Source of the DNA: Candidatus Doudnabacteria bacterium RIFCSPHIGHO2_01_FULL_46_24
GTDB lineage: Bacteria > Patescibacteriota > Doudnabacteria > UBA920 > O2-02-FULL-48-8
Reading direction: 5' to 3'
DNA: 64,000 nucleotides
NCBI GenBank assembly: GCA_001777575.1
Contig: MFEL01000008.1
Span: 42,634 to 106,633, forward strand
Below are positions 2,566-29,090 of the stretch, in pieces. How positions within the stretch are numbered: position 1 is the stretch's first letter; every line of letters starts with the position of its first letter. Below the pieces are notes generated by a model, which did no database searches, was not told the DNA's origin, and was given only the letters and a program-made list of their open reading frames with translations. Both the position numbers and the translations under genes were made by a program.

Positions 2566-3482
2566 TTTTGTTCTCCTTCCGCTGCCGCGGGAATTTGCGC
2601 GCAGGGTGTTGACTTAAAACAATAATAAACCCATTTTTCGCTTCTCATGTCAACGTAAGCCAATCTGGCGCGGTCCTTGGCTGGAATTTGTTTTGACAAT
2701 AACATGCTTAACCCGGATAGTTGGGAATATACCGAGCGGTTGACGTCAAAAAAAGCCGACCACTCTTCCGCGGAAATAAATTGCACTTCATTGGCATATT
2801 TGCTGGTCAATTTGATCGAGTTGACCCTTGTCGCTATCTTGGATGGCCAAGATTTGTGCATGGATAAAATAAATGCAGTCAATTTGGTGTTCGATAAATA
2901 CTCTCCCACCACAACATCTTCTTCAGTTTGCAAAGCCACTTCGGGAAGCCCGTGATTTTCAACGGTTTCCCGGATTACAGTGCCGCTTTCGTCAACCAAG
3001 AATTTCCTATCCTTCACAGCCAGCACAAAACCCGGCACGCGCTCCTTGATTTCGATTTCGATCCGGCGAAACCCGATTCGGTCGGATTTAACCACTTCTT
3101 GTATTTCCGGCAGCGCATTGGTCAACATCTTGTTGACCCTGCCGCGGGTTAAGAGCAGGTAATGGTTCTTTTTGACAAGCAGCAAGCGATTGTTGCCGAT
3201 GGCTTCCAGAGCCTGCTGGATCTGTCCCTGTGTGACCTGACTATTGCCTGCCACCGCCACCTCCGTGATGACAAACCGACTGGAAACGACAAGATAGTAA
3301 ACTATGATGAGCGCCAAAACAATAAGCAACCATTTCAAAAATCTGAAGCGGAAAAGAAAATAGCGAACCGGCGCCAAACTCCGCTTGTAGTTTTGAGCCT
3401 GCCTCAGCCGCGATCGGAATTCCCGTCCCCCGAACCGACGGTGCGGCTCCAGTTTCCTTCTATGCTTCGAAAAAATTTTCAT
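2562..3482 (-). CDS. ftsQ: Cell division protein FtsQ/DivIB-like (single TM + POTRA-like domain)
   Basis: N-terminal basic region, one TM helix, then a periplasmic domain. It lies in the ddl/mur cluster. Overlaps pyrH by 4 nt. Confidence 0.5.
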   Translation of the reverse strand: MKIFSKHRRKLEPHRRFGGREFRSRLRQAQNYKRSLAPVRYFLFRFRFLKWLLIVLALIIVYYLVVSSRFVITEVAVAGNSQVTQGQIQQALEAIGNNRLLLVKKNHYLLLTRGRVNKMLTNALPEIQEVVKSDRIGFRRIEIEIKERVPGFVLAVKDRKFLVDESGTVIRETVENHGLPEVALQTEEDVVVGEYLSNTKLTAFILSMHKSWPSKIATRVNSIKLTSKYANEVQFISAEEWSAFFDVNRSVYSQLSGLSMLLSKQIPAKDRARLAYVDMRSEKWVYYCFKSTPCAQIPAAAEGEQK

Positions 3483-4534
3483 ATAATCATGCTTTTGAGG
3501 TCTTTGGGGATTTTGCTATGAATCTTGGGCTGTTTAGCCACGGTTATCATATCTTCTATTCTAACACCAAATTTGCCCGGCAGATAAATTCCAGGCTCAA
3601 CAGTCACCACGGAATTGACTTTCAGGACATCCTCAGAAGCGGGTGAAAAGTTGGGTTGTTCGTGAATTTCCAAACCTACGCCATGGCCGGTATTGTGGGT
3701 GAAATATTTGCCAAAACCGGCTTGGGTGATAACTTTGCGCGCGGTTTGATCAACCAACGAAGCTTTGTTGCCTATCTGGACTTTCGCGATGGCCTTAAGT
3801 TGGGAGTGTAAAACTGTTTCGTAAACTTTGGCTTGAAAACCTGTTGGCCGGCCAAGAAACAGGGTTCGTGTGAAGTCTGAGTGGTAATTTCCGACTTTGA
3901 AGCCGAAATCCAAAAGCAAAAAATTATTTCTGCCGACTCTGGTCTTGCTGGGAAAATGATGCGGGCTGGCTGCGTTGGAACCAAAAGCTACTATGGGATC
4001 GAAAGCCAAGCCTTCTGCGTCCAACTCTGTCCCATATTTCAAAATCAGTCCTGCAATTTTTGCTTCGGTTAACTCATATTTATTTATATATGCGCGTATA
4101 TACTTTTTTATTTGCTCAAAAGTCTTATCAATAATTGCACTGCCTCGCTCAATCGCCTTAAGCTGTGCTTTGGTCTTTACTGCTCGCACGTTCTCGATGA
4201 CATTAGCAGTTGATTTCCAACTAACCCCTTTCCCAATTTTCTTGAGGCTGGCAAACTCCCGCAAACTGATCCGATCCTCAATCGCGATTTTTTTATACTT
4301 AGCAAGAACCAAGTCTTTGCTAAGTCTTTCTAATTTTCTCACCGGCATGCCTGACTCTTTTTTTGCGCGCAAAAAATACCTCCCGTCAACATACAAAACC
4401 GCCTCGCGCTTGCTTATTACTAAATACCCGGCTGACCCCGTAAATCCCGAAAGATACTGCCGATTGATTTTGGTCAACACCAAAAAAGCATCCAGTTTTT
4501 TTTCAACCAGATAATCATGGATTTGGTTTGTCAT
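3479..4534 (-). CDS. Xaa-Pro aminopeptidase / M24B family metallopeptidase
   Basis: C-terminal HNTGHGVGLEIHE and GVRIEDM motifs of the M24 pita-bread fold. Has the N-terminal creatinase-like domain. Confidence 0.8.
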   Translation of the reverse strand: MTNQIHDYLVEKKLDAFLVLTKINRQYLSGFTGSAGYLVISKREAVLYVDGRYFLRAKKESGMPVRKLERLSKDLVLAKYKKIAIEDRISLREFASLKKIGKGVSWKSTANVIENVRAVKTKAQLKAIERGSAIIDKTFEQIKKYIRAYINKYELTEAKIAGLILKYGTELDAEGLAFDPIVAFGSNAASPHHFPSKTRVGRNNFLLLDFGFKVGNYHSDFTRTLFLGRPTGFQAKVYETVLHSQLKAIAKVQIGNKASLVDQTARKVITQAGFGKYFTHNTGHGVGLEIHEQPNFSPASEDVLKVNSVVTVEPGIYLPGKFGVRIEDMITVAKQPKIHSKIPKDLKSMII

Positions 4535-16920: not shown

Positions 16921-17908
16921 TTCCCGTCCCGCGCACCACTGTGGTTAAGGGATCGTCCGCTACGGTCACCGGCATCAGCGTTTCTTCCGCAATCAATCGG
17001 TCAAGCCCCCGAAGCAGAGCCCCGCCGCCAGCCAAAGTTATGCCCTTCTCCATGATGTCAGCCACCAATTCCGGCGGGGTTTCCTCAACGGCAATTTTAA
17101 TGTTGTTGACTATGACCCGCACCGACCGCTGCAAAGCTTGTCGAATTTGGTCGTCCATAACCGTCACTTCTTTTGGCAATCCCGTGACCAGATCACGGCC
17201 GCGGATTTGGGCCTTCATCTTTTCTTTCAACGGATACGCTGAACCGATCTTGATCTTCACATCCTCGGCAGTGCGCTCGCCCAGAAGCAGGTTAAATTCT
17301 TCGCGCGCGAACTGGATGATATTTTCGTTCATCTCATCCCCCGCCACCCTGATGCTTTTGGAAATGACAATGCCGCCAAGGGAAATCACGGCAATCTCCG
17401 CAGTCCCGCCGCCGATATCAACAATCAGGGACCCAGTGGCGTCCTGGACCGGCAACCTCGCCCCAATCGCCGCAGCCATGGGTTCTTCGATCAAAAGCGC
17501 CATTCTGGCTCCGGCATTGAGAGTCGCGTCCTGCACCGCTCTTTTTTCAACTTCGGTCACACCGGACGGTATGCCCACAACCACCCGGGGCCGGTTCAAA
17601 AAACCCAAAGCTGTGGGACTAACCTTTTCGATGAAGTACCTTAGCATCTGTTCTGTGATTTCAAAATCCGAGATTACCCCGTCCGTCAACGGCCTGTTGG
17701 CCACGATGTGGGCCGGGGTGCGACCGACCATGCGCTTAGCCTCTTCGCCAATGGCCAATATCTGCTTGGTTTTCTGGTTGACGGCCACAACTGACGGTTC
17801 ATTAATAACAATACCCTTGCCTTTGACATACACAAGGGTATTGGCAGTGCCAAGATCAATTCCAATGTCTTTAGAAAATTTATTGTAGATTGCGTCTAAA
17901 ATCGGCAT
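16850..17908 (-). CDS. mreB: Rod shape-determining protein MreB (actin homolog)
   Basis: [14 protein letters not shown] phosphate-1 motif. Full-length actin fold. Confidence 0.9.
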   Translation of the reverse strand: MPILDAIYNKFSKDIGIDLGTANTLVYVKGKGIVINEPSVVAVNQKTKQILAIGEEAKRMVGRTPAHIVANRPLTDGVISDFEITEQMLRYFIEKVSPTALGFLNRPRVVVGIPSGVTEVEKRAVQDATLNAGARMALLIEEPMAAAIGARLPVQDATGSLIVDIGGGTAEIAVISLGGIVISKSIRVAGDEMNENIIQFAREEFNLLLGERTAEDVKIKIGSAYPLKEKMKAQIRGRDLVTGLPKEVTVMDDQIRQALQRSVRVIVNNIKIAVEETPPELVADIMEKGITLAGGGALLRGLDRLIAEETLMPVTVADDPLTTVVRGTGIVLEDLDALKDVLVITEFEQIPR

Positions 17909-19142
17909 GTCTGGTTAATCTCTCGGGCAACTCCTTAATCTCAATTATTTCGATTTTATCGCTGTTTCGCTTTTTCAATTCCACGCTTTCTTTTTCTAGC
18001 GTTTTATCCGAAACGACCACACGATGAACAATCCCAATCAGATCCGCATCAGCAAATTTCACTCCTGGCGTTGTGTCCCGCTGATCAAATAGTACCGAAA
18101 CACCGGCACCCTGTAAAGCATTGTAAATGTTTTCGGCTTTTTTCGAATCTTTGGTAATGCTAACCAAATGCACATCAAATGGGCTGACCGCTTGAGGCCA
18201 AATGATACCCCGCTCATCGTGGAATTTTTCCACAATCACGCCCATGAGGCGCGAAACCCCCAGGCCATAGCAGCCCATGACCGGATATTGCTTTTCGTCG
18301 CCGCGGCCTTTGAATCCGAGTTCAAAATCTTTGCCGTACTTTTGGGCCAAATCAAAGACATTGCCCACCTCCGAAGCCGTGGCTGCATTCAGTTTACCGT
18401 TCCTGCACTTAGGACAATTATCGTTTGCTTTCTGTTTGGCTATATCCACATTAACGCAAAACTCGCAAGCATCGCAATACAGGATGTTGTCCTCGCCGGC
18501 GTCGGTTAAAACCATGAATTCATAAGAAATCTTCTCGCTAAAACCGCCGCCCGAGGCTTCGGTCGCTTTGGCCACTAAGCCGATGCGTTTAAAAATTTTG
18601 AGATAAGCCTGCTTGACCACGTCATAAAAATTGTCAAAATCTGCCTGGTTCTCGTGAAAGCTGTACATGTCCTTCATGTAAAACTCGCGCCCGCGCAGCA
18701 AACCTGATTTGCTCCGCAGTTCATCGCGGTACTTCCAACCTATCTGGTAGACGGCCTTGGGCAAATCTTTGTGCGTTTCGATGTATTGCATCACCAAAGG
18801 GGTAACCACCTCTTCTTCGCTTTGGCCCAAGGCATAATCCTTACCCGTGCGGCTCTTGAGCTTAAACAGCACATCCACTTTCTCCCAAGCTCCGGTTTTC
18901 TTCCAGATTTCCGCCGGATGCAACGCCGGCATGAGGATCTCCTGCCCGCCAATTCTATCCATTTCTTCCCGGACGATTTGCTCGATGTTTTTCAAAACCC
19001 GCAAGCCAAGCGGCAGATACGAATACACGCCGGCCATGAGTTTTTTGACAAACCCCGCCCGCGTCAAAAGCTGGGCATTTACTGTTTCTTCGCCCGAAGG
19101 CGCCTGTCTAAGGGTTTTTGTAAATAATTGAGATTGGAGCAT
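17880..19142 (-). CDS. proS: Prolyl-tRNA synthetase (short form without an editing insertion)
   Basis: Class II motifs. 420 aa. A Cys cluster CDACEFC...CPKCRNG. Confidence 0.8.
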   Translation of the reverse strand: MLQSQLFTKTLRQAPSGEETVNAQLLTRAGFVKKLMAGVYSYLPLGLRVLKNIEQIVREEMDRIGGQEILMPALHPAEIWKKTGAWEKVDVLFKLKSRTGKDYALGQSEEEVVTPLVMQYIETHKDLPKAVYQIGWKYRDELRSKSGLLRGREFYMKDMYSFHENQADFDNFYDVVKQAYLKIFKRIGLVAKATEASGGGFSEKISYEFMVLTDAGEDNILYCDACEFCVNVDIAKQKANDNCPKCRNGKLNAATASEVGNVFDLAQKYGKDFELGFKGRGDEKQYPVMGCYGLGVSRLMGVIVEKFHDERGIIWPQAVSPFDVHLVSITKDSKKAENIYNALQGAGVSVLFDQRDTTPGVKFADADLIGIVHRVVVSDKTLEKESVELKKRNSDKIEIIEIKELPERLTRHADFRRNLQ

Positions 19143-19149
19143 AGTTTTT

Positions 19150-19197
19150 GGAGGGGTATCCTCCTGGCTAAACGCTTATCTGGGAGGATGCCCCTCC
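19150..19197. promoter_or_regulatory. Long GC-rich hairpin immediately 5' of proS (15-bp arms GGAGGGGTATCCTCC / GGAGGATGCCCCTCC, 18-nt loop)
   Basis: The arms are reverse complements with one mismatch. Located 8 nt upstream of the proS start codon. Confidence 0.5.
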
Positions 19198-19334
19198 CTG
19201 AAAGTGCCAAGCGCATAAATTCAAATGATGTCTAAATTATACCCTCTCTTGACAATTTGGGCAAAAAATCCTATTTTTAACTGCTCAGTGCTGTGCGTAC
19301 CGATTCATCATCGACTCAAGGCTCAGGAGGAACC

Positions 19335-19529
19335 ATGAAGGAACTCATCAAGGGGTTCTCTTTCGCCATCACGATCGCTCTGATCGCAGCGTCTCTGACC
19401 GCTTCTGGCCACCGCGATTGGGCCTTCGCCGTGTTGTATGGAGCCTTGGTGTGGGTTGGCGTAAGCGTGGGTGTCCATCACCGCCGCCGCTCCCGCCACA
19501 GGCGACAATACCGCCGCGACGTTCACTAA
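19335..19529 (+). CDS. Small GC-rich ORF: two-TM membrane peptide with an Arg-rich C-terminal tail. The frame continues after an in-frame TAA to 19667.
   Basis: AGGAGG 4 nt upstream of the ATG at 19335. GC3-rich codon usage, unlike the host genome. The same frame stays open for 45 more codons after the TAA at 19527. Confidence 0.35.
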   Translation: MKELIKGFSFAITIALIAASLTASGHRDWAFAVLYGALVWVGVSVGVHHRRRSRHRRQYRRDVH

Positions 19530-19977
19530 GTAGTTGTCATTCCCAGAGCCGACGACTTCGTCAAGACTCTGGTCGAGTGCCGACTCGAACGCGAGGCGCA
19601 AAAACTCATCGCCAGAGCAATCCACGACAGGGTCGCCGTTCTCGCACGGCAGGCGGGCATGATCTGATCTAGGTTTCATGCCCAGATCACCGCCTCAAAC
19701 GCGAGGAGAGGATGGCTAAGTAAGCTTCCCTCCTCGCCCCCCTTTTTCCCCTTACTCCATTTCTCTCCTTACTCCCTTTACACCCATTATTCCCCTTTCT
19801 GAGGTTTTTATTTTACCCTAAAGGACACCCCTAAAGGACACCAGGACAACCCAATCAATACTTCACTGCACTGAAGCAGTGAAGTATTGCGTTGTCCAGA
19901 TTGACAGGAAACTTTAATGCGCCAGGCGCCTGGCGCAATAAAATGTTGCTTTAATATTAAATAAACGAAATTTTAAA

Positions 19978-19998
19978 GGCTCAACCGGCGGTTGAGCC
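19978..19998 (-). terminator. Hairpin (ggctcaacc/ggttgagcc) downstream of the rseP stop
   Basis: A 9-10 bp GC-rich stem 8 nt after the rseP stop, followed on the minus strand by a U-rich stretch. Confidence 0.45.
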
Positions 19999-20005
19999 TT
20001 GGCCT

Positions 20006-21124
20006 CTAGAAAATTCTCTGGAACAAATTTTTGAAGTTTTCGCTATAGCGGCTGACGTCCTTGATAGTGACCAGAACCATCAAAAGCAACAGCAGGCCGA
20101 AGCCGATGGTGTTGGCTGCCTGTTCGGCTTTGGCCGGGAGTTTTTTACGGCGGATGGTTTCGATGGCTAAAAACAAGACCCGGCCGCCGTCCAGGGCAGG
20201 AAACGGAACGGCGTTGATTACCGCCAGGTTGATGGAAAGCAGGGCGGTGAATTGCAGAATATAAATAAAGCCAAGTTCAGCCACATCTCTGGTCAGCACC
20301 GCAATTCCCACCGGTCCTGACACAGCCACAGCCACAGACGCGCCCTGAAGCCAGGAGCCAATCACTTCAGCAAACGCCGATATCGTGACGCCGACCAGGC
20401 TGAAAGCGGAAACAAACCCGCGGGGCAATAATTGGTACCAAGGGTAAGAAACTCGCGCCACCATTGCCAGACCTATGCCCAAGGGACCCTGACCCTCCGG
20501 CGGATTTTCCCTGGGCACTAAGTTTTTTTCAAATGTCGAATCTCCGCGCCTGATTTCATACACTGTCTGTCTCCCAACATTCTGCCGCGTCAGCTCCTGC
20601 AGCTGTTCAATGCTGGCAATGATTTCGCCTCCGACTTTGATAATACTGTCCCCGGCCTTGATCCCTACTGACGATGCCGGAGAATCAGCAGCTAAATCTA
20701 TGATTGTAATCGACGGGTTTTTAACCCTGGCCGAGGCAGGCAAGCTTTCGCCTTCATGAATCACGGTCGGCAAACCCAAACCTAAGCCTATTGCGATTAA
20801 AATCCAGGCCAAAACCACGTTCATCGACACTCCGGCGACTAAGACAAAAAATCTCTGCCAAGCGGATTTGTTGGCAAAACTTTTGGAGTCTTGGGATTCA
20901 GCCCCATCTTCGCCGGTAATTTTGACGAAACCGCCCAGTGGAATCCAATTGATCGAATAAATGGTTTCGCCTCGTTTAATCCCGAAAAATCTGGGCGGAA
21001 AGCCAAACCCGAATTCTTCCACGCGCATGCCGGCCCGTTTGGCCATAATAAAATGCCCCAGTTCATGGACAAAAACCAGGAGGCCAAGGATTGCTATAAA
21101 AATGATAATCGTGAGTAGAATCAT
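20006..21124 (-). CDS. rseP: Site-2 protease RseP (M50 zinc metalloprotease with PDZ domain)
   Basis: HELGHFIMAKRAG HExxH motif and a PDZ segment. Polytopic membrane protein. Confidence 0.85.
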   Translation of the reverse strand: MILLTIIIFIAILGLLVFVHELGHFIMAKRAGMRVEEFGFGFPPRFFGIKRGETIYSINWIPLGGFVKITGEDGAESQDSKSFANKSAWQRFFVLVAGVSMNVVLAWILIAIGLGLGLPTVIHEGESLPASARVKNPSITIIDLAADSPASSVGIKAGDSIIKVGGEIIASIEQLQELTRQNVGRQTVYEIRRGDSTFEKNLVPRENPPEGQGPLGIGLAMVARVSYPWYQLLPRGFVSAFSLVGVTISAFAEVIGSWLQGASVAVAVSGPVGIAVLTRDVAELGFIYILQFTALLSINLAVINAVPFPALDGGRVLFLAIETIRRKKLPAKAEQAANTIGFGLLLLLMVLVTIKDVSRYSENFKNLFQRIF

Positions 21125-28175: not shown

Positions 28176-28408
28176 AGATGCCCTTTGACACTAAATCTTG
28201 GTTCAACGAGCCGGAACGCCCGATTTTTTGCAATTTTCTGATTGAATTTACAGGTCTGGCCATAAATTACGTAACAAATTATATAATTATCTCTATAATT
28301 ATAGTTTAGCATATTTGTGCTATAATCTCTCTGCCCAAAGCCTTGCTGCCCCACAGGCCCATGTGTCTGCCGGCGCGTTTTTTTTATTCCACTAAAAACA
28401 GAGTCTTT

Positions 28409-28437
28409 TTGACAAAATTGTCAAGAGAGGATAGAAT
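28409..28437 (+). promoter_or_regulatory. Sigma70-like promoter for the TA operon (TTGACA-17-TAGAAT) overlapping a TTGACAA/TTGTCAA palindrome. Predicts a leaderless transcript.
   Basis: -35 at 28409-28414, a 17-nt spacer, and -10 at 28432-28437. The ATG at 28444 is 7 nt after the -10. Confidence 0.5.
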
Positions 28438-28443
28438 TTAAAT

Positions 28444-28671
28444 ATGACACAAGCAGTAATTACGAAGATCAAATCAAACAGCATTTTACTGCCCAAAACA
28501 TGGAAGGGCAGCAAGGTTCTTTTACGCATCACTGACAACACTGCGACTATTACCAAGGTACCCAAGACAAGCAATATTTTTTCACTTCAAGAAATTAAAG
28601 CTTGGCGACGATTGGGCAAAAAGGTCGCCAAATCAACCCTAAATAAAGCCTTGGCAAAAGCTCGTGAATGA
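28444..28671 (+). CDS. Putative antitoxin (AbrB/MazE-like swapped-hairpin DNA-binding protein)
   Basis: 75 aa. Its stop overlaps the start of the PIN gene by 4 nt. Confidence 0.5.
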   Translation: MTQAVITKIKSNSILLPKTWKGSKVLLRITDNTATITKVPKTSNIFSLQEIKAWRRLGKKVAKSTLNKALAKARE

Positions 28672-29090
28672 AAATCTTTGCCGATACTAATGTTATAGTT
28701 TCCATGCTGCTCTGGGGAAAGTCCTTAGAGCAGCTTTTTGTCCTAATCAACGCTCGCAAGATAACTTTAGGCTTTTCGCCGGCGACAATCGAGGAATTGT
28801 TCCGTGTTGTCAATTATCCGCAAATAGCCAAACAAGCCCTTAAGCAGAATGTTGATGCCGAAGTCCTTGCCGATAAATTAGTTGCCGCTTCTGAAATTTG
28901 TTATCCAAGCAAAACATTTGACATTGTCGCTGATGATCCAAGCGATAATAAAATACTCGAAACAGCTCTGGAAGCCAAAGCCGAGTATATAATTTCTGGG
29001 GACAGGCATTTGCTGCAATTGAAAACTTTCGAAAAAATCCCAATTGTTACACCAGCAAAATTTCTAAAGCTTAATATCAACAATTTTTAA
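28668..29090 (+). CDS. PIN-domain toxin (VapC-like)
   Basis: MKIFADTNVI…DPSDNKILETAL…ISGDRHLL carries the conserved acidic residues of a PIN nuclease. Confidence 0.75.
   Translation: MKIFADTNVIVSMLLWGKSLEQLFVLINARKITLGFSPATIEELFRVVNYPQIAKQALKQNVDAEVLADKLVAASEICYPSKTFDIVADDPSDNKILETALEAKAEYIISGDRHLLQLKTFEKIPIVTPAKFLKLNINNF

Follow-up and report, generated by a model that had tools for sequence, protein, structure and literature searches.

The 863-bp spacer between rseP and proS (positions 19143-20005) in a 64,000-nucleotide (64-kb) stretch of DNA from Candidatus Doudnabacteria bacterium RIFCSPHIGHO2_01_FULL_46_24, hereafter the window, is probably a Doudnabacteria-specific slot for accessory genes that holds a decayed cassette and splits a gene pair that was ancestrally adjacent. 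This reading builds on direct observations, namely the anatomy of the spacer, its presence in independent assemblies, the variable occupancy of the junction among relatives, the blocks that it shares with the nearest relative compared (L012), the similarity of its second open reading frame (ORF2) to a protein family designated famA, and the rarity and guanine-plus-cytosine (GC) bias of that family. Both famA and famB, a second family encountered at the junction, are working names for uncharacterised families that have no Pfam, NCBIfam or PADLOC model. The proposal of an earlier note on this DNA, made from the letters alone, that the spacer carries an acquired and decayed gene is thereby largely borne out, given the variable occupancy of the site and the relic nature of ORF2; the locus is not covered in the literature found under Doudnabacteria.

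Both flanking genes are read on the minus strand, are confirmed by Pfam (proS, 17880-19142; rseP, 20006-21124), and belong to a conserved frr-rseP-proS-mreB-mreC-mreD-PBP2 block; the island takes up the whole interval between them. All 863 bp are 100% identical in five independent assemblies that cover the full span, 99.8% identical in two further assemblies, and identical in an eighth except for a 10-N scaffold gap; with that gap set aside, the spacer recurs at ≥99.7% identity in at least eight assemblies from JGI, ENA, NCBI, and Logan sources. All six of the unusual elements that the earlier note had listed are present in the spacer. Its statement that the composition jumps to roughly 60% GC is accurate for a core at 19335-19740 (about 60%) but not for the spacer as a whole (51.4%, vs. 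47% for the window). In GC content, this core exceeds every other 400-nt stretch of the window, with a GC fraction of 0.605 against a mean of 0.472 (standard deviation 0.043), which places it in the top 0.03% of the 64 kb.

Comparison of the rseP-proS junction among Doudnabacteria relatives with 73-81% identical ProS proteins (few close relatives were returned by a metagenome scan with ProS) reveals marked differences in occupancy. The junction is short in more distant genomes of the Candidate Phyla Radiation (CPR; L018, L037, and L087) and nearly empty in two Doudnabacteria (P0008 contig, 17 bp; L093, 112 bp), while other Doudnabacteria carry inserts of 1.0-1.3 kb. These inserts differ in content: a 157/173-amino-acid (aa) Zn-ribbon ORF (famB) with an 88-aa ORF (famA) in L012; a 96-aa ORF with a 128-aa famB in the P0005 contig and L174; a 184-aa ORF that begins with a transmembrane (TM) segment and poly-Arg in L092; a 206-aa famA in L177; and, in L176 (GCA_023246005.1), a 173-aa gene on the proS strand (2566-3087 of that locus) with precomputed PaaX_M and weak Cas2-like Pfam matches. 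In four of the five insert-bearing relatives (L012, L092, L174, and L177), the ORFs have no Pfam match and run opposite to proS. As the junction is empty in some genomes and differently filled in others, it is regarded as a variable slot, of which the empty form is plausibly the ancestral state, and the GC-rich core of the window behaves as acquired accessory DNA, as the earlier note had supposed. A short contig that stops before rseP (L115) holds a 260-aa AT-rich ORF divergent from proS. The large spacers of L014 and L036 were considered as counterparts of the island and set aside, as they hold an ordinary and unrelated membrane-protein gene on the same strand.

The DNA shared between the window and L012 is limited to three blocks: a promoter block (19235-19284, 78% identity over 50 nt), a hairpin block (19699-19754, 77% over 56 nt), and a T/C run (19785-19822, 84% over 38 nt). 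Because only these promoter, terminator, and T/C blocks are held in common, the cassette appears to retain promoter and terminator and to exchange its genes. Within the first block, a consensus scan places a putative cassette promoter on the plus strand (TTGACA-17-TATTTT, 19249-19277), which overlaps, back to back, a putative proS promoter on the minus strand (TTGCCC-17-TATAAT, 19236-19264, with the TATAAT box at 19236-19241); this pair (19236-19277), predicted to be active from sequence, had not been among the elements of the earlier note. Comparisons of L012 with L177, and of L092, L174, and L177 with one another, likewise show the block to be conserved, and its TATAAT-containing part is kept in L012, L174, and L177. 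As a separate observation, a 35-nt part of this block (19233-19267) is 88.6% identical to 28406-28440, the promoter region, with the perfect palindrome TTGACAAAATTGTCAA, of a VapBC-like pair elsewhere in the window (28406-29090), in which a 75-aa ORF with no Pfam match (28444-28671) overlaps a PIN_3-domain gene (28668-29090).

ORF2 (19530-19667, plus strand) continues the frame of the first open reading frame (ORF1, 19335-19529, plus strand) past a single TAA for 45 codons, as the earlier note had described, and ends at a TGA (19665-19667). It contains no ATG, GTG, or TTG start codon and corresponds to residues ~22-67 of P0124, the 88-aa famA protein of L012, with a Smith-Waterman score of 55 against 23.1±4.1 for shuffled sequences (z 7.75; 0 of 500 shuffles reach 55). 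In a ranking of the 1446 stop-to-stop segments that reach 25 aa or more in the window's six frames, ORF2 comes first for P0124, P0128, and P0137 and second for P0130. The alignment spans the famA loop and helix 2 (VMLPxVDEFI...REAQ), the part of the family described by the pattern [VI]MLPxVDEF[IL]...REA; the helix-1 motif R-T-A-L-x-x-H-x-A-K-H (RTALVTHHAKHG), invariant in famA, occurs in none of the six frames of the spacer. Because its best match in the 64 kb is to famA residues 22-67, ORF2 is read as a 5'-truncated famA relic. It stands directly upstream of the terminator hairpin common to the window and L012 and on the strand opposite proS, as does the famA gene of L012, and with this matching position taken into account, homology of ORF2 to famA appears likely from the sequence. 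The idea that the reading frame beyond the TAA is a genuine gene remnant is hence upheld by its rank among the window segments and by the hairpin just downstream.

The 3' end of ORF2 differs among strains, its stop codon being TGG in L003 and L008 (strains ~99.9% identical). The surrounding stretch, 19655-19675, is a hot spot of micro-heterogeneity, with two of the three single-nucleotide polymorphisms (SNPs) found against L008 over 7 kb falling at 19668 and 19675, and the 10-N gap of scaffold L005 (ANAN16) lies in the same stretch, at about 19655-19664. Together, the differing stop, the nearby SNPs, and the gap fit a loss of constraint.

The family to which this relic is assigned was defined in the present analysis as the RTALVTHHAKHGVMLP helical-hairpin family. 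A search for famA and famB in 5.8 billion proteins returned 12 members, and an exhaustive famA profile search of 1.84 billion representatives returned 19; no member of either family carries a Pfam domain. famA is a very rare helical-hairpin family, limited to a few Patescibacteria. AlphaFold models the N-terminal helical hairpin of famA with confidence (predicted local distance difference test, pLDDT, of about 90 over residues 1-45) and famB with low-to-moderate confidence (mean pLDDT 64), and neither model has a Foldseek match in the PDB at E < 0.1. With 58-66% GC, against 40-51% for the host loci, the famA genes exceed every host examined in GC content; this explains the local rise in the spacer and speaks for a common gene pool of foreign composition. 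Further chromosomal sites of famA or famB are found between smpB and a CSD/infC block (L179), between a cupredoxin gene and a UvrD/AddB gene (P0127 contig), and in a run of small ORFs (L180); famB is absent from the window.

Several observations on these families stand by themselves. A 192-aa ORF in L181 (IMGVR_UViG_3300010396_000056, 2050-2628) is headed by a famB-like Zn-ribbon, CHCGKKGLYRV..C.DHR (CHCGKKGLYRVNEYYYCSDHR), which is the sole viral link found; the rest of this ORF is presumably a DUF559-like/Vsr-type endonuclease, with neighbours that, on a reading of the sequence, we take to be helicase-like and HNH-like ORFs. In L179, two similar blocks of ~40 nt (TAGTTAG.GCC.AATTTACAAA…TGGT.AA; 2810-2850 and 3826-3865) precede a TM/poly-Arg gene and famA, respectively; these were noticed by eye, were unreported in a blastn self-comparison, and could be cassette boundary repeats. 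Lastly, a 23-nt block, GCAAAA[C/T]TACCGGCTGTCAAAAT, occurs with one mismatch and in opposite orientation at L180 4319-4341, at the contig end downstream of famA, and at L092 3378-3400, between proS and the cassette promoter.

ORF1 itself encodes 64 aa behind a strong Shine-Dalgarno sequence (AGGAGG, 19325-19330, plus strand, 4 nt ahead of the ATG), with hydrophobic segments at residues ~4-22 and ~28-47 followed by a His/Arg-rich tail (HHRRRSRHRRQYRRDVH; residues after the second segment, HHRRRSRHRRQYRR). Its GC content by codon position is 0.62/0.48/0.72, i.e., highest at third positions (GC3) and lowest at second positions, and the ribosome-binding site, GC3 bias, and two-TM character noted earlier are all present. 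Comparable combinations of a TM segment with His/Arg-rich or poly-Arg stretches occur near famA: P0142 fuses famA to RHHRHSRRRRR and a C-terminal TM segment, in L179 a separate cassette that precedes famA encodes a 164-aa TM…RRRRR protein, and the 184-aa ORF of L092 has an N-terminal TM segment followed by RRRARKHHRK. These parallels suggest that ORF1 is the membrane-anchor part of a TM and poly-Arg module and not a random ORF; judged by its sequence features, it is an orphan that is possibly still expressed. The L092 protein was also considered as a relative of famA or ORF1 and rejected, as the likeness seen by eye is non-significant (z 0.4 and 2.8, respectively), and it is retained as an architectural parallel only.

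Downstream of ORF2, the plus strand bears a putative, non-canonical cassette terminator (19701-19737), in which a 15-bp hairpin (-23.6 kcal/mol, z -4.5) is followed by CCCCCC and TTTTT; the hairpin is conserved in L012, and the T run is offset from the stem by the six C residues. A second putative terminator, for rseP, lies on the minus strand at 19976-20000, where an 11-bp hairpin (z -4.3) that starts 5 nt past the rseP stop codon is followed by UUUAAAAUUU. Neither hairpin had been listed in the earlier note, and termination at both is predicted from sequence. The intervening DNA is rich in repeats. A pyrimidine-rich tract (19727-19815, plus strand, 84% C+T), which had been described as made of C and T only, contains 10 A and 4 G residues in 89 nt, although it is indeed the most pyrimidine-rich 89-nt stretch in the 64 kb; it comprises three degenerate copies of the T/C run (19739-19756, 19756-19773, and 19783-19800) that is single-copy after the L012 terminator. 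A perfect tandem 13-mer (CCCTAAAGGACAC x2, 19816-19841), a nested hairpin (19844-19897, with a 7-bp outer stem and a perfect 14-bp inner stem at 19856-19889; -31.2 kcal/mol, z -7.9), and a palindrome (19913-19942) with a perfect 18-bp core (19919-19936) follow, and the 13-mer, inner stem, and palindromic core are present as first described. None of these three has a counterpart in L012, and no T run adjoins the nested hairpin or the palindrome on either strand. Overall, the fold of 19680-20010 scores z -7.4 (plus strand) and -5.9 (minus strand) against shuffled sequences. The core of the nested hairpin, CTTCACTGC…GTGAAG, occurs in the 64 kb at 19861-19884 and at 1598-1621 only, with zero copies expected by chance; the copy at 1598-1621 is followed by a T run and resembles a terminator.

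At the other edge of the spacer, a stem-loop (19150-19197, minus strand) with 15-nt arms that include one G.U pair, extendable to 22 nt at 82% complementarity, would lie in the proS leader, as judged from folding and the position of the TATAAT box. The arms are as the earlier note gave them, and the distance to the proS ATG (19142) is 7 nt. As the TATAAT box stands ~94 nt upstream of the ATG, a leader of ~88 nt that carries this hairpin, whose arms are made of GGAGG and CCUCC motifs, is predicted; the 90 nt ahead of proS fold with -32.3 kcal/mol (z -3.4 vs. shuffled), and the ATG has no Shine-Dalgarno sequence directly upstream. In L012, L174, L092, and L115, TATAAT lies 7-8 nt ahead of the proS ATG, and proS is hence read as leaderless in these genomes. 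The proS gene of L093 likewise has a probable hairpin-bearing leader of ~80-90 nt and no Shine-Dalgarno sequence before its ATG. The notion that the island hosts regulatory structures for proS is sustained insofar as the putative proS promoter lies inside its left edge and the hairpin would fall in the leader. The hairpin is lineage-specific, however, and because it is not conserved, a dedicated regulatory RNA is unlikely here.

Taken together, a cassette transcribed away from proS and towards rseP can be envisaged, in which a sigma-70-like promoter (19249-19277) and the strong Shine-Dalgarno sequence would drive ORF1 and the hairpin with its T/C run (19701-19760) would end the unit, with the startless, 5'-truncated famA relic left between ORF1 and that hairpin. 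The last 270 bp would form a zone between convergent units, composed of the triplicated T/C run, the 13-mer duplication, the two palindromic hairpins, and the rseP terminator, and may represent the debris of local duplication and palindrome formation with a terminator or insulator effect and not a conserved RNA. An ancestral cassette resembling that of L012 would have come first, with replacement or deletion following in the lineage of the window.

A number of results weigh against this account. No integrase, transposase, target-site duplication, or terminal repeats were found, the -10 box of the cassette promoter (TATTTT) is weak, and the hairpin at 19701-19737 was not called by a consensus terminator scan, its T run being offset by six C residues. 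BLASTP gave no alignment between ORF2 and famA, and the famA profile hidden Markov model (HMM) was marginal (E 0.03 against 42 sequences and 2.3 against 1446), so that the case for their homology rests on pairwise score, rank, and position. Moreover, ORF1 plus ORF2 matched only the query itself among 5.8 billion proteins, which leaves ORF1 without homologs, and the likeness of ORF1 to the TM and poly-Arg proteins is compositional only (z 2.8) and lacks statistical support.

Searches for a recognisable identity were otherwise negative. Pfam, PHROGs, NCBIfam, and PADLOC yielded nothing above threshold for ORF1, ORF2, the ORF on the minus strand discussed below, or the ORFs of relatives. The phage or mobile-element origin proposed in the earlier note found no backing, as the window DNA had no match in phage and plasmid collections, tblastn of famA and famB against phages returned none, and scans of IMG/VR with famA and ORF1 were empty; a 17-nt terminator pattern gave four matches, none of which extended and all of which were treated as chance. 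No significant direct repeats flank the island, and ARAGORN detected no transfer RNA or transfer-messenger RNA genes. In Rfam, no gathering-level match, T-box included, was obtained for the whole window, and at E ≤ 10 over 18500-20700 only chance-level miRNA and snoRNA matches appeared.

With respect to the coding content, three other accounts were weighed. It is very unlikely that ORF1, the TAA, and ORF2 constitute one gene for a membrane-anchored famA-like protein, whether through stop readthrough or a very recent single nonsense mutation. The frame is unbroken across the single TAA, the famA HMM alignment crosses it by one residue, and TM and poly-Arg segments are fused or paired with famA in P0142 and L179 and form the N-terminus of the L092 protein; nevertheless, TAA is the commonest stop of the long ORFs in the window (21 of 47) and is thus not reassigned, contrary to a possibility that the earlier note had raised, and the downstream stop of ORF2 is polymorphic among strains. 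Furthermore, the most conserved motif of famA, helix 1, is missing and not merely interrupted, and a single nonsense mutation therefore cannot explain the present state. A 118-aa ORF on the minus strand (19679-19323), annotated in GCA_001777815.1 and by several gene callers, is highly improbable as the real gene, even though it is the longest ORF in the spacer and is called in L003, L004, L008, L009, and L011: it has no Pfam or PHROG match and no tblastn match in the first related loci (L012-L091), its GC by codon position (0.68/0.46/0.63) shows no GC3 excess, and both strain SNPs are nonsynonymous on a reading of the sequence, while promoter, Shine-Dalgarno sequence, terminator, famA similarity, and the orientation of relatives' cassettes all fit the plus strand. 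There is, in turn, only a small chance that ORF1 is a holin-like toxin, or one of a type I toxin-antitoxin-like system, checked by antisense transcription from the rseP unit, with the hairpins setting the antisense level. Its size, two hydrophobic segments, highly charged tail, and strong Shine-Dalgarno sequence would suit such a role, as would the convergent arrangement with several hairpins between the units. Yet the match to Phage_holin_2 (17.1 bits, E 0.0064) falls short of the Pfam cut-off of 32, so that the holin-like gene suggested earlier is not supported; that to a PHROG of unknown function is likewise sub-threshold, and PADLOC and NCBIfam are empty. The neighbours of ORF1 are proS, rseP, mreB, and frr, with no endolysin or lysis cassette nearby, a consensus scan located no antisense promoter over ORF1, no antitoxin RNA promoter was identified, and a peptide without homologs offers no family behaviour for comparison.

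The remaining accounts concern the DNA and RNA as such. It is unlikely that the hairpins are functional structured RNAs, with that at 19150-19197 regulating proS translation or stability and the array at 19700-20000 acting as a small RNA or a 3'-untranslated-region element. Folds that beat shuffled sequences in both regions, a GGAGG-CCUCC pairing beside a proS start that lacks a Shine-Dalgarno sequence, and the hairpin-bearing leader of L093 would be expected of such RNAs, but the non-coding RNA reading of the earlier note is not supported, given the absence of any Rfam match, T-box included, and the lack of conservation in L012 of all hairpins except that at 19701-19737; proS is, moreover, leaderless in four relatives, and palindromes and tandem repeats without a mismatch speak for recent events at the DNA level and not for selection on an RNA fold. 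An assembly chimera or artefact, for which the 10-N gap in the L005 scaffold might be cited, has a negligible probability, and the check for chimerism that had been called for is settled by recurrence of the spacer in at least eight separate assemblies at ≥99.7% identity and by islands with the same promoter and terminator blocks in other species.

If the spacer is indeed a variable slot with a decayed cassette, hot spots between genes, in which rare orphan genes of foreign composition are gained and lost, persist even in Patescibacteria genomes of very small size, and at this one the promoter and leader of proS, which encodes an essential synthetase, have been rearranged. In terms of annotation, the public record contains the 118-aa minus-strand ORF, whereas the evidence favours a plus-strand 64-aa ORF and a pseudogene relic. 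The uncharacterised families famA and famB, together with the equally uncharacterised membrane-anchor and poly-Arg module, could be markers of a mobile gene pool specific to the CPR. A bolder extension, which is considered unlikely, is that the TM and poly-Arg peptide, famA, and famB belong together in a mobile cassette of Patescibacteria that has so far gone unrecognised, is self-contained, brings a promoter and a terminator of its own, and differs from every host in GC content; the window would then hold a degraded copy with ORF1 maybe active. Such a cassette could be a tiny addiction, exclusion, or defence module from CPR phages, and would insert beside housekeeping genes and supply or reshape their promoters. 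No long-standing open question is touched by these findings.

Several known systems offer points of comparison. Between the convergent units, GC-rich hairpins with T-rich runs (plus strand, 19701-19760; minus strand, 20000-19960) resemble intrinsic terminators, including bidirectional ones between convergent genes, although in the cassette hairpin 6 nt separate the stem from its T run, and the two middle hairpins have no T run. ORF1 shares its short length, two hydrophobic segments, and highly basic tail with class II phage holins and type I toxin peptides, but differs from them in lying below the Phage_holin_2 cut-off, in being homolog-less, and in the absence of an identified endolysin or antisense RNA. 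ORF2 departs from famA in having neither the invariant RTALVTHHAKHG helix nor a start codon, but aligns with it over the loop and helix 2 and has the same place before a shared terminator as famA in L012. The closest parallel is with strain- or lineage-variable genomic islets, meaning intergenic hot spots of orphan accessory genes, or 'morons'. Like them, the spacer is a small unit that deviates in composition, has a probable promoter and terminator of its own, and sits between housekeeping genes; its occupancy and content differ among close relatives, and its genes, in the window, are decaying. Unlike them, it showed no phage context, integrase, tRNA target, or flanking repeats, and it belongs to an ultra-small genome of the Patescibacteria in which the cassette promoter overlaps that of an essential aminoacyl-tRNA synthetase gene. 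In summary, the islet is a further case, of modest interest, of variable intergenic islets with decaying orphan genes.

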